Assembly: GCA_002069885.1 (NCBI GenBank)
Contig: MWCD01000001.1
Coordinates: 67,795-131,794, forward strand
Source: a bacterium ADurb.Bin236
GTDB taxonomy: Bacteria; UBP15; UBA6099
Direction of reading: 5' to 3'
Length of the DNA stretch: 64,000 bases
Shown here: positions 38,170 to 38,509 of the stretch, one piece after another
How the letters are laid out: every line of letters begins with the position of its first letter
Numbering within the stretch: the stretch's first letter is position 1
Translations under genes and position numbers: made by a program
Notes under the pieces: generated by a model
The model's input: the letters and a program-made list of their open reading frames with translations, nothing else
Databases searched by the model: none
Told to the model about the DNA's origin: nothing

Positions 38170-38482
38170 GACAACTCCTTTTGTTTGCTATACGCGCATC
38201 CGCGCGCGCATACGCATACGCGGCATAACCACGACAAGCCCTGCCTATGTCGCGCGAATATGATGAAACAGAACCGATCGCTTGCTCTGGAAACGAAGTA
38301 CGCAAACTTCGTTTCCCCCTCCGTGGGATAAGCGACAGGCCCTAATCGCGCTCGCCTATTTCACAGCGCCTTTCACATCCTTGTGAAAGTATGTAAGCAC
38401 AACGTATGGTCATGCGCATATTCCGACATAACCTAACGCCCGAATCCCATCAATGCGGGATTCGTATTTTGTGTCACTCTTG

Positions 38483-38509
38483 TTATCGGCAATTCTTATT
38501 AAAAGTTTA
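38483..38509 (-). promoter_or_regulatory. Sigma-28 (FliA) promoter: TAAACTTT-N11-GCCGATAA
   Basis: It matches the consensus at 15 of 16 positions with an exact 11-nt spacer. It lies about 310 nt upstream of the giant flagellin start codon. Confidence 0.65.

Follow-up and report, generated by a model that had tools for sequence, protein, structure and literature searches.

In Bacillus subtilis, the flagellin gene hag is transcribed by SigD, the sigma-28 homologue. Yakhnin, in 2007, and Mukherjee, in 2011, reportedly described the hag leader and the Hag–FliW–CsrA partner switch. Translation of this flagellin is repressed via two CsrA sites, one of which lies over the Shine–Dalgarno (SD) sequence (PMC7652899; PMC6529632). 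In Campylobacter jejuni, flaA is sigma-28-dependent, its control by CsrA and FliW has been shown, and its mRNA has two GGA stem-loops, the second of them over the ribosome-binding site (RBS) (Dugar et al. 2016, PMC4894983). The flaA stems carry compensatory changes in related species, and their GGAs are spaced by 21 nt, the optimum for a CsrA dimer being 18 nt (PMC4894983). More than two sites per RNA are found in the Escherichia coli glgC leader, which has four CsrA sites, and in the small RNAs CsrB and RsmZ, which expose GGA in many hairpin loops (PMC7652899); the flaA mRNA and the fim 5'UTR of Salmonella titrate CsrA (PMC4894983).

Here we describe the leader of a giant flagellin gene located in a 64,000-nt stretch of DNA (the window) from bacterium ADurb.Bin236. 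This organism is a MAG from an anaerobic digester and represents an unclassified, deep-branching, uncultured lineage. NCBI enters it simply under unclassified Bacteria, and SepRS is the subject of the one paper in which it appears. It is read as diderm because LpxK and KdtA are encoded in the window; purine and thiamine genes are located beyond one of the window ends.

Similarly to C. jejuni flaA, the predicted transcript is a sigma-28 flagellin mRNA with two GGA stem-loops, and the GGA spacing, which is about 21 nt in flaA, is 23 nt in the giant-flagellin leader and 31 nt in the leader of a second, small flagellin of the same window. The leader length differs, being 45 nt in flaA and about 307 nt here, and orthologous leaders reach about 460 nt; three or more additional hairpins are present. 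In its proximal loop our leader has GCGGAU and not ANGGA, and it precedes the gene for a 983-aa flagellin that carries a beta-propeller-like insert. Moreover, the roles of CsrA and FliW were demonstrated in C. jejuni, whereas here we infer them. The two-site layout is also shared with B. subtilis hag, being predicted here from the sequence, but our leader is far longer and belongs to an organism that is diderm and known from sequence alone. Like glgC, CsrB and RsmZ, the predicted RNA combines several GGA-loop hairpins, with a putative high-affinity hairpin site upstream of a weaker SD site; however, the candidate sites number about 4–5 in 307 nt, compared to about 18 in CsrB, and they are a part of an mRNA and not of a stand-alone sRNA.

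The giant flagellin locus and its orthologues

The giant flagellin gene is an ORF of 983 aa (35218-38169, minus strand) with Flagellin_N and Flagellin_C at its ends and PD40/TSP3 matches in its middle, as revealed by profile search. Under the NCBIfam models it scores about 112 bits as a flagellin versus 57 as FlgL, and the database protein “Flagellin [bacterium ADurb.Bin236]” is 100% identical to it. The start codon is the ATG at 38169, and the SD sequence AAGGAG occupies positions 38180-38175 of the same strand. The product, of about 100 kDa with a propeller-like insert, may have to remain unfolded during type III export. Two other ORFs were considered and rejected: the 964-aa ORF downstream of the giant flagellin is not a second giant flagellin but SecA, which is followed by RF2, and the 60-aa ORF at 28465-28647 obtained no Pfam support as a YjfB-like gene.

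The gene and the features placed upstream of it, all on the minus strand, are the following:

38483..38509, minus strand: sigma-28 (FliA)-type promoter TAAACTTT-N11-GCCGATAA, with a 15/16 match to the consensus, kept in relatives
38170..38476, minus strand: predicted 5'UTR (the leader), about 307 nt long, its start being placed about 7 nt past the -10 box
38441..38464, minus strand: 5'-proximal hairpin CGAAUCCCG-CAUUGA-UGGGAUUCG, with 8/9 pairs kept in all four relatives
38408..38433, minus strand: hairpin GGUUAUG-(12-nt loop UCGGAAUAUGCG)-CAUGACC, with 96% of cells paired
38370..38389, minus strand: hairpin CUUUCACA-AGGA-UGUGAAAG carrying ACAAGGAUGU, a candidate high-affinity CsrA site, covarying and with the SELEX core
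38282..38349, minus strand: 68-nt block, dispensable, with a GCGAT direct repeat at both edges, absent from L009
38189..38212, minus strand: hairpin UAUGCGCGC-GCGGAU-GCGCGUAUA of 9 bp, the proposed SD-proximal CsrA site, with pairing and loop GGA kept
38171..38184, minus strand: SD AAGGAG (38175-38180), proposed as the second CsrA site and displayed by a small ACAA/UUGU hairpin; placed by sequence and local hairpin scan
35218..38169, minus strand: giant flagellin, the proposed regulated cargo, with Flagellin_N, Flagellin_C, PD40 and TSP3, scoring higher as flagellin than as FlgL

For comparison, eight distinct orthologous loci were collected by genome, metagenome and protein-database searches. 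The protein identity to the giant flagellin is 94–95% for L001/L002 and 91% for L009; the more distant orthologues are L003/L004 (46%), L005-7/L010 (49%) and L008/L011 (45–48%). The metagenomic L012, whose partial match (37%) is confined to the central domain, was left out. The leaders of the close relatives were compared in a four-way alignment (window, L001, L002 and L009). Throughout the giant-flagellin family a leader length of 250–470 nt is conserved, and the leader sequences are unalignable between its three subfamilies.

GGA-loop hairpins in two flagellin leaders

The AGGA hairpin at 38370-38389, on which the preliminary description did not remark, appears to be the strongest candidate for a protein-binding site. 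Its loop (38378-38381) lies within ACAAGGAUGU, a sequence unique in the 64 kb, which holds all invariant positions (ACA, GGA and GU) of the CsrA SELEX consensus RUACARGGAUGU (PMC7652899). The pattern ACARGGATGT occurs once on both strands of the 64 kb versus 0.08 expected. All cells of the stem are paired (100%), one U-A/C-G change in it is compensatory, and CAAGGAUGUG of this hairpin shows no variation among all four relatives.

Closer to the start codon, the GCGGAU loop (38198-38203) presents a GGA (38199-38201) which is invariant in relatives. The five inner C-G/G-C pairs of its stem are invariant too, and the outer pairs are kept via the changes of U-A to G-U, of U-A to U-G, and of G-U to A-U or G-C. 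The GGA of the SD (38176-38178) is located 23 nt downstream of the loop GGA. Hence, the sequence-level features of a hag/flaA-type leader are found here: a GGA hairpin, a GGA overlapping the SD, and a spacing within the bridging range. Two details depart from the known sites. The GCGGAU loop has G instead of A two positions before the GGA, in contrast to the textbook ANGGAN, and the leader stems, of 8–9 bp, are more stable than most SELEX hairpins, which have four or fewer contiguous pairs (PMC7652899).

GGA-loop hairpins were counted by a local hairpin scan, the global MFE counts being noisy on 300-nt RNAs. In the window leader, four local hairpins expose a loop GGA versus 0.97 in shuffles (P=0.01), a number reached by 2.6% of natural 320-nt windows, while the total of GGA is 7 versus 5.4 expected. 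The L002, L009 and L003 leaders have five, four and seven such hairpins, respectively (P<=0.008). The enrichment is distributed over the window, L001/L002, L009 and L003/L004, and the leader groups L005/L010 and L008/L011 possess one hairpin each and are unenriched (P ~0.5). The high-affinity RsmE/CsrA loop motif CANGGANG occurs five times in the 545 nt of three sigma-28 leaders versus 0.17 expected from the window-wide rate, with the reservation that this motif was picked post hoc, after the sequences were viewed.

The second flagellin of the window represents a parallel case:

45736-46746, minus strand: gene for the 336-aa flagellin, with a parallel leader unit at 46747..46928
46747..46928, minus strand: small-flagellin leader unit (promoter, SL1 and SD), placed by sequence and orthologues

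Its sigma-28 promoter, TAAAGTTT-N11-GCCGATTT at 46902-46928 of the minus strand, is the second-best site of the window and yields a predicted leader of about 150 nt. SL1 is CGGGAAAAA-AGGA-UUUUUCCCG (46778-46799, minus strand), and the SD, contained in ACAUGGAGGU, has its GGA (46756-46758) 31 nt downstream of the one in SL1. Six orthologues were available (L015, L017, L019, L021, L022a and L024), with protein identity of 88% for L021 and about 50% for the other five. All six have a sigma-28 site (13–15/16), a stable GGA-loop hairpin (AGGA, ACGGAA, GGGA or AUGGAA) located 40–45 nt before the ATG, and a small second hairpin (SL2) which presents the SD. When five leaders (window, L015, L017, L019 and L021) were aligned, SL1 proved to be 100% paired around an invariant GGA, with double-sided changes at 5/7 pairs, which was reached in 0/500 shuffles. 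The layout of a GGA hairpin followed by the SD can be clearly recognised in each of the seven small-flagellin leaders, which, by this conservation, would lend independent support to a CsrA-type layout.

The same elements might act in cis only, the stems protecting the mRNA from RNases or setting the translation rate and the GGA loops serving as 30S standby sites. Such a role would agree with the conservation of the 5'-proximal hairpin, with the inherent complementarity of GGA/GGAG loops to the anti-SD, and with the lack of GGA-loop enrichment in the L005 and L008 leaders. It would also agree with the outcome of our searches for the regulator: tblastn with three CsrA sequences at E<=1 gave no csrA match in the window and 24 loci, which cover a small fraction of each genome, and the CsrA/FliW Pfam families were not found on the called neighbour genes, including the wide flanks of the eight flagellin loci. 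However, the AGGA hairpin agrees with the CsrA SELEX core over much more than the GGA itself (ACA..GGA..UGU) and does so once in 64 kb, and the loop GGA placed 23–31 nt before the SD GGA recurs, on covarying stems, in the seven small-flagellin leaders. This two-site geometry is the one demonstrated by experiment for flaA and hag (PMC4894983, PMC7652899). We consider a cis-only leader unlikely.

Leader structure, selection and the sigma-28 promoter

The preliminary description proposed a leader of about 310 nt, which agrees with the predicted start: with transcription beginning some 7 nt past the -10 box, the leader would comprise about 307 nt. Its folding energy differs from that of shuffled sequences by z = -5.6, and 0/100 shuffles are equally stable. 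This long, structured leader is subject to purifying selection, because its identity exceeds that of the 4-fold synonymous sites of the adjacent gene in three comparisons (0.88/0.76, 0.89/0.71 and 0.74/0.58), with P of 3e-7 to 9e-15 for the excess.

The four-way alignment indicates at which level this selection may operate. The helix cells are paired in 95.8% of cases versus 28–54% with the partners slid, and double-sided changes are present in three leader helices (alignment of window, L001, L002 and L009). The hairpin at 38408..38433 has one such change (U-A to C-G); its loop GGA is found in the window, L001 and L002 and is replaced by GGU in L009. The 5'-proximal hairpin at 38441..38464, which starts some 13 nt into the predicted transcript, has two changes of C-G to U-G, and it is possibly an mRNA-stabilising stem. 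About a dozen cells in the leader helices are G-U, and they point to selection on the sense RNA because on the opposite strand they would be A-C mismatches. These helix substitutions argue for selection at the RNA level, since G-U pairs would break a symmetry of the DNA.

A long, strongly folding leader under selection may also be suspected of being an undescribed riboswitch or thermosensor that controls flagellin by alternative folding, the more so as c-di-GMP riboswitches are known in flagellar operons of some bacteria. Nevertheless, the Rfam 15 covariance models gave 0 matches in the whole window at gathering thresholds, and even at E<=10 the region 38100-38620 yielded two noise matches only. 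The predicted fold of the leader leaves the SD unsequestered, neither a conserved multi-helix junction nor a pseudoknot was seen there, and the failure of the leaders to align between the three giant-flagellin subfamilies, together with the loss of a 68-nt structural domain in L009, is difficult to reconcile with a ligand- or temperature-sensing fold. We regard a sensor of this kind as improbable.

Two further candidates were dismissed in the course of the leader analysis. The leader peptide encoded by an 18-codon ORF from AUGUCGGAA was rejected because a 1-nt indel in L002 shifts its frame, and a pairing of the -10 box with leader bases suggested by RNAalifold was set aside because the -10 box is untranscribed.

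In the preliminary description, the control of the giant flagellin was associated with two conspicuous elements of the leader, a perfect 11-bp stem-loop and a Z-DNA-like alternating tract. Both elements are present, and their rarity in the window is confirmed, but comparison with relatives changes their meaning. The 11-bp hairpin, GGAAACGAAGT-TTGCGT-ACTTCGTTTCC at 38316-38289 of the minus strand, is perfect and unique in the window. As was claimed, it does not look like a terminator: the sequence after the stem, AGAGCAAGCG, lacks a U-run, and the terminator scan of the minus strand did not report it. Together with a CCC-ACGGA-GGG mini-hairpin (38317-38327), this stem-loop (38289-38316) makes up the content of the 68-nt block. 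The expectation that it would be conserved in related genomes did not hold: the hairpin is gone in L009, in spite of 91% protein identity, it is unrecognisable in the 45–49% identical orthologues, and it is present only in the nearest relatives, where the stem offers no informative variation for a covariation check except A-U/G-U at one pair. Because its 68-nt block is missing from L009, the 11-bp stem-loop would be an accessory, lineage-specific insert, or a deletable one. The possibility that the block and its hairpin are a repeat or a mobile element was rejected, as neither has a second copy in the window or in any of the loci.

The alternating purine/pyrimidine tract (38222-38201, minus strand) is 22 nt long and strictly alternating; it is the longest run of this type in the window, the runner-up being 19 nt. 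It coincides with the 5' arm and a part of the loop of the GCGGAU hairpin. In L001, L002 and L009 the alternation is reduced to 11, 11 and 13 nt, respectively. Because alternation is lost while the pairing and the GGA loop persist, the tract is, by the comparative evidence, an RNA hairpin and not a selected Z-DNA element.

These observations bear directly on the reading in which the flagellin is controlled at the DNA level, via supercoiling or a DNA-binding protein, with the 11-bp repeat as an operator or cruciform and the tract as Z-DNA. The statistically unusual character of both elements in the window and a (CG)4-5 core that is kept in all close relatives speak in favour of it, but L009 lives without the inverted repeat, the relatives retain the RNA pairing with an alternation of only 11–13 nt, and the helix substitutions yield G-U pairs which break the palindrome symmetry of the DNA; this makes DNA-level control very improbable.

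The 5' edge of the leader is set by the promoter, which on the minus strand consists of the -35 box TAAACTTT (38509-38502), an 11-nt spacer and the -10 box GCCGATAA (38490-38483). The claimed match to the enterobacterial FliA consensus, TAAAGTTT-N11-GCCGATAA, at 15/16 positions was reproduced. No other site in the 64 kb has <=1 mismatch, and 0/100 dinucleotide shuffles gave such a site; with <=3 mismatches, there are three sites in the window versus 0.73 expected. L001, L002 and L009 retain the site at 14–15/16, and in all distant orthologues the -10 box is GCCGATAA/T/C. A sigma-28-type site (12–15/16) is located 250–469 nt 5' of the ATG in 8/8 distinct orthologous giant-flagellin loci. In these loci the giant flagellin is a lone gene preceded by a gene-free gap, and its neighbourhood differs between the orthologue groups. 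The promoter would be the 5' boundary of the conserved unit because in L002, which has a different upstream gene, the identity jumps at the -35 box from 0.39 upstream to 0.88 in the leader. Judged by comparative criteria, this sigma-28 promoter is genuine. The scanned ORFs of the window did not include fliA. The enterobacterial FliA class III promoters share with this site the 15/16 identity, the equal 11-nt spacer and the position 5' of a flagellin gene, whereas here the promoter belongs to a deep-branching digester MAG and lies unusually far from the start codon.

That the sigma-28 match is not a working promoter, the gene being transcribed by read-through from the FecR/FGE-sulfatase gene or from an unrecognised promoter near the ATG and the leader being mere intergenic DNA, is compatible with the lack of a predicted terminator between 38608 and 38510, but it is hardly credible in view of the sigma-28 site kept by L002 and all distant orthologues despite different, in several cases divergent, upstream genes, of the leader conservation above neutral sites, and of the promoter scan, which found no sigma-70-like site on the minus strand within 38170-38509.

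A proposed CsrA-type model of giant flagellin control

It is highly probable that the region represents a FliA-type promoter with a regulatory leader. For the full proposal, a FliA-dependent flagellin mRNA with the RBS repressed by CsrA, probably with the participation of FliW, we estimate a probability of roughly 0.5. CsrA as the binding protein and FliW as its antagonist are suggested by analogy with the described flagellin leaders. The preliminary description, which proposed post-transcriptional or protein-binding control and named CsrA/FliW, seems to point to the best-supported mechanism. What stands of its proposal is the sigma-28 promoter and the long, structured leader, which proves to be under selection; what does not is the choice of the 11-bp stem and of the alternation, which are not what evolution keeps.

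We suggest the following order of events. The FliA (sigma-28) RNA polymerase would start about 7 nt past GCCGATAA, near 38476, giving a leader of about 307 nt and making the giant flagellin a class III (late) gene. The leader would then fold into a series of hairpins, several of which present GGA in their loops. A CsrA dimer may contact two GGAs, one in the GCGGAU loop (38199-38201) and the other, 23 nt away, in the SD (38176-38178), and by spanning them it would block the ribosome. The upstream AGGA hairpin (38370-38389), a near-consensus site, may tether more CsrA or let the abundant flagellin mRNA titrate CsrA. Finally, if the B. subtilis hag and C. jejuni flaA systems are a guide, flagellin export would free FliW, which would sequester CsrA and lift the repression.

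The titration of CsrA by the giant-flagellin leader is speculative. Its extended version, in which the unusually long leader is a built-in CsrA sponge, a CsrB-like multi-hairpin decoy joined to the giant-flagellin message, is in our opinion doubtful, and so is the alternative that the conserved non-GGA hairpins bind a lineage-specific factor. In this view, the need to keep so large a flagellin unfolded for export may demand an extra-tight coupling of its synthesis to secretion, and competition for CsrA might set the hierarchy of expression between the giant and the ordinary flagellin.

Returning to the CsrA-type repression of the RBS as the preferred reading, we consider it a new example of a known mechanism and not a new mechanism, long multi-site CsrA leaders being already described. 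The GGAs at 38378-38380, 38199-38201 and 38176-38178 are the candidate sites to test, and L009 represents a natural deletion variant in which the most conspicuous hairpin is dispensable. More generally, a perfect inverted repeat or a Z-DNA-like tract that stands out in the raw sequence can be misleading, while the signal in this leader resides in the covarying, less striking GGA-loop hairpins. To our knowledge, the regulation of giant flagellins is unstudied. If confirmed, the proposed control would extend the logic of a FliA promoter combined with CsrA/FliW-type repression to an uncultured digester lineage and to giant flagellins.

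A second flagellin and other sigma-28-like sites

Besides the giant flagellin, the window encodes a second flagellin of ordinary size, and a third, weaker sigma-28-like site precedes a small reading frame:

45736-46928, minus strand: 336-aa flagellin with its leader and its own sigma-28 promoter
28344-28647, plus strand: weaker sigma-28-like site TCAAGATT-N11-GCCGATAT (3 mismatches) and a downstream 60-aa ORF

The leader of the 336-aa flagellin consists of two stem-loops, an AGGA-loop hairpin (46778-46799) and a Shine-Dalgarno (SD) hairpin, and this module shows strong covariation across the orthologous loci L015, L017, L019, L021, L022, and L024.

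The organism of locus L022, which carries a giant flagellin of the L004 type, also encodes a third flagellin type of 326 aa:

12970-13950 (minus strand) and 5761-7512 (plus strand) of L022: 326-aa flagellin of the third type, and the region of the 341-aa flagellin and cstA

The 326-aa flagellin has a weaker sigma-28 match and a short leader (~52 nt), in which no GGA hairpins were found. The 341-aa flagellin is followed by cstA, which in E. coli is a textbook target of CsrA; its position here is probably coincidental.

The 60-aa ORF (28465-28644, plus strand) is unannotated, is preceded by a strong SD sequence (GGGGAGG), ends C-terminally in ...NVVDIYA, and gave no match in a Pfam comparison. 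Its ~90-nt leader contains CACGGAGG twice, each time in a predicted hairpin loop, and the same 8-mer occurs in the giant-flagellin leader (38318-38325).

The giant flagellin and its surroundings

The central region of the giant flagellin (35218-38169, minus strand) matches PD40/TolB-like beta-propeller repeats and bacterial TSP3 (calcium-binding) repeats; its relatives (L003-L011) are ~1150 aa long. All these genes are solitary, each lying in an unrelated neighbourhood apart from other flagellar genes.

On the plus strand, the hairpin nearest the 5' end of the leader (38441-38464) is called as terminator-like, its stem being followed by TATTTTGTGT, and the reverse complements of the close orthologues L009, L001, and L002 are likewise T-rich past this stem. 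Such a hairpin could stop antisense transcription before it reaches the promoter, or the T-rich stretch may be a mere reflection of the A-rich mRNA start.

In L003, a 223-aa ORF (5107-5778, minus strand) covers the entire leader on the opposite strand; because no gene is called at this place in the near-identical L004 locus, the ORF is probably spurious.

The second-longest alternating purine/pyrimidine run of the window, TGCACACATGCGCGTGCGC (19 nt, 49023-49041), falls within a GH84 beta-N-acetylglucosaminidase gene.

Upstream of the giant flagellin lie the following genes:

38608-40017, minus strand: unusual fusion protein in which a FecR domain is joined to an FGE-sulfatase (formylglycine-generating enzyme-like) domain at the C-terminus
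40011-41402: MiaB-like radical-SAM methylthiotransferase, overlapped by the preceding gene
41427-42767 and 45202-45543, minus strand: four separate small STAS-domain proteins (anti-sigma-factor antagonist type)

Since the FecR/FGE-sulfatase gene is syntenic with the giant flagellin in L001 but not in L002, it stands outside the flagellin unit. The STAS cluster sits between the two flagellin genes of the window, and in L005/L006 a STAS gene is also found near the giant flagellin; these genes could be a motility-linked partner-switching module.

The source organism

ADurb.Bin236 is known in the literature for a noncanonical SepRS and for a SepCysS operon (PMC5424206), and is otherwise unclassified. 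Both LpxK and KdtA are encoded in the window, and the organism is therefore diderm.
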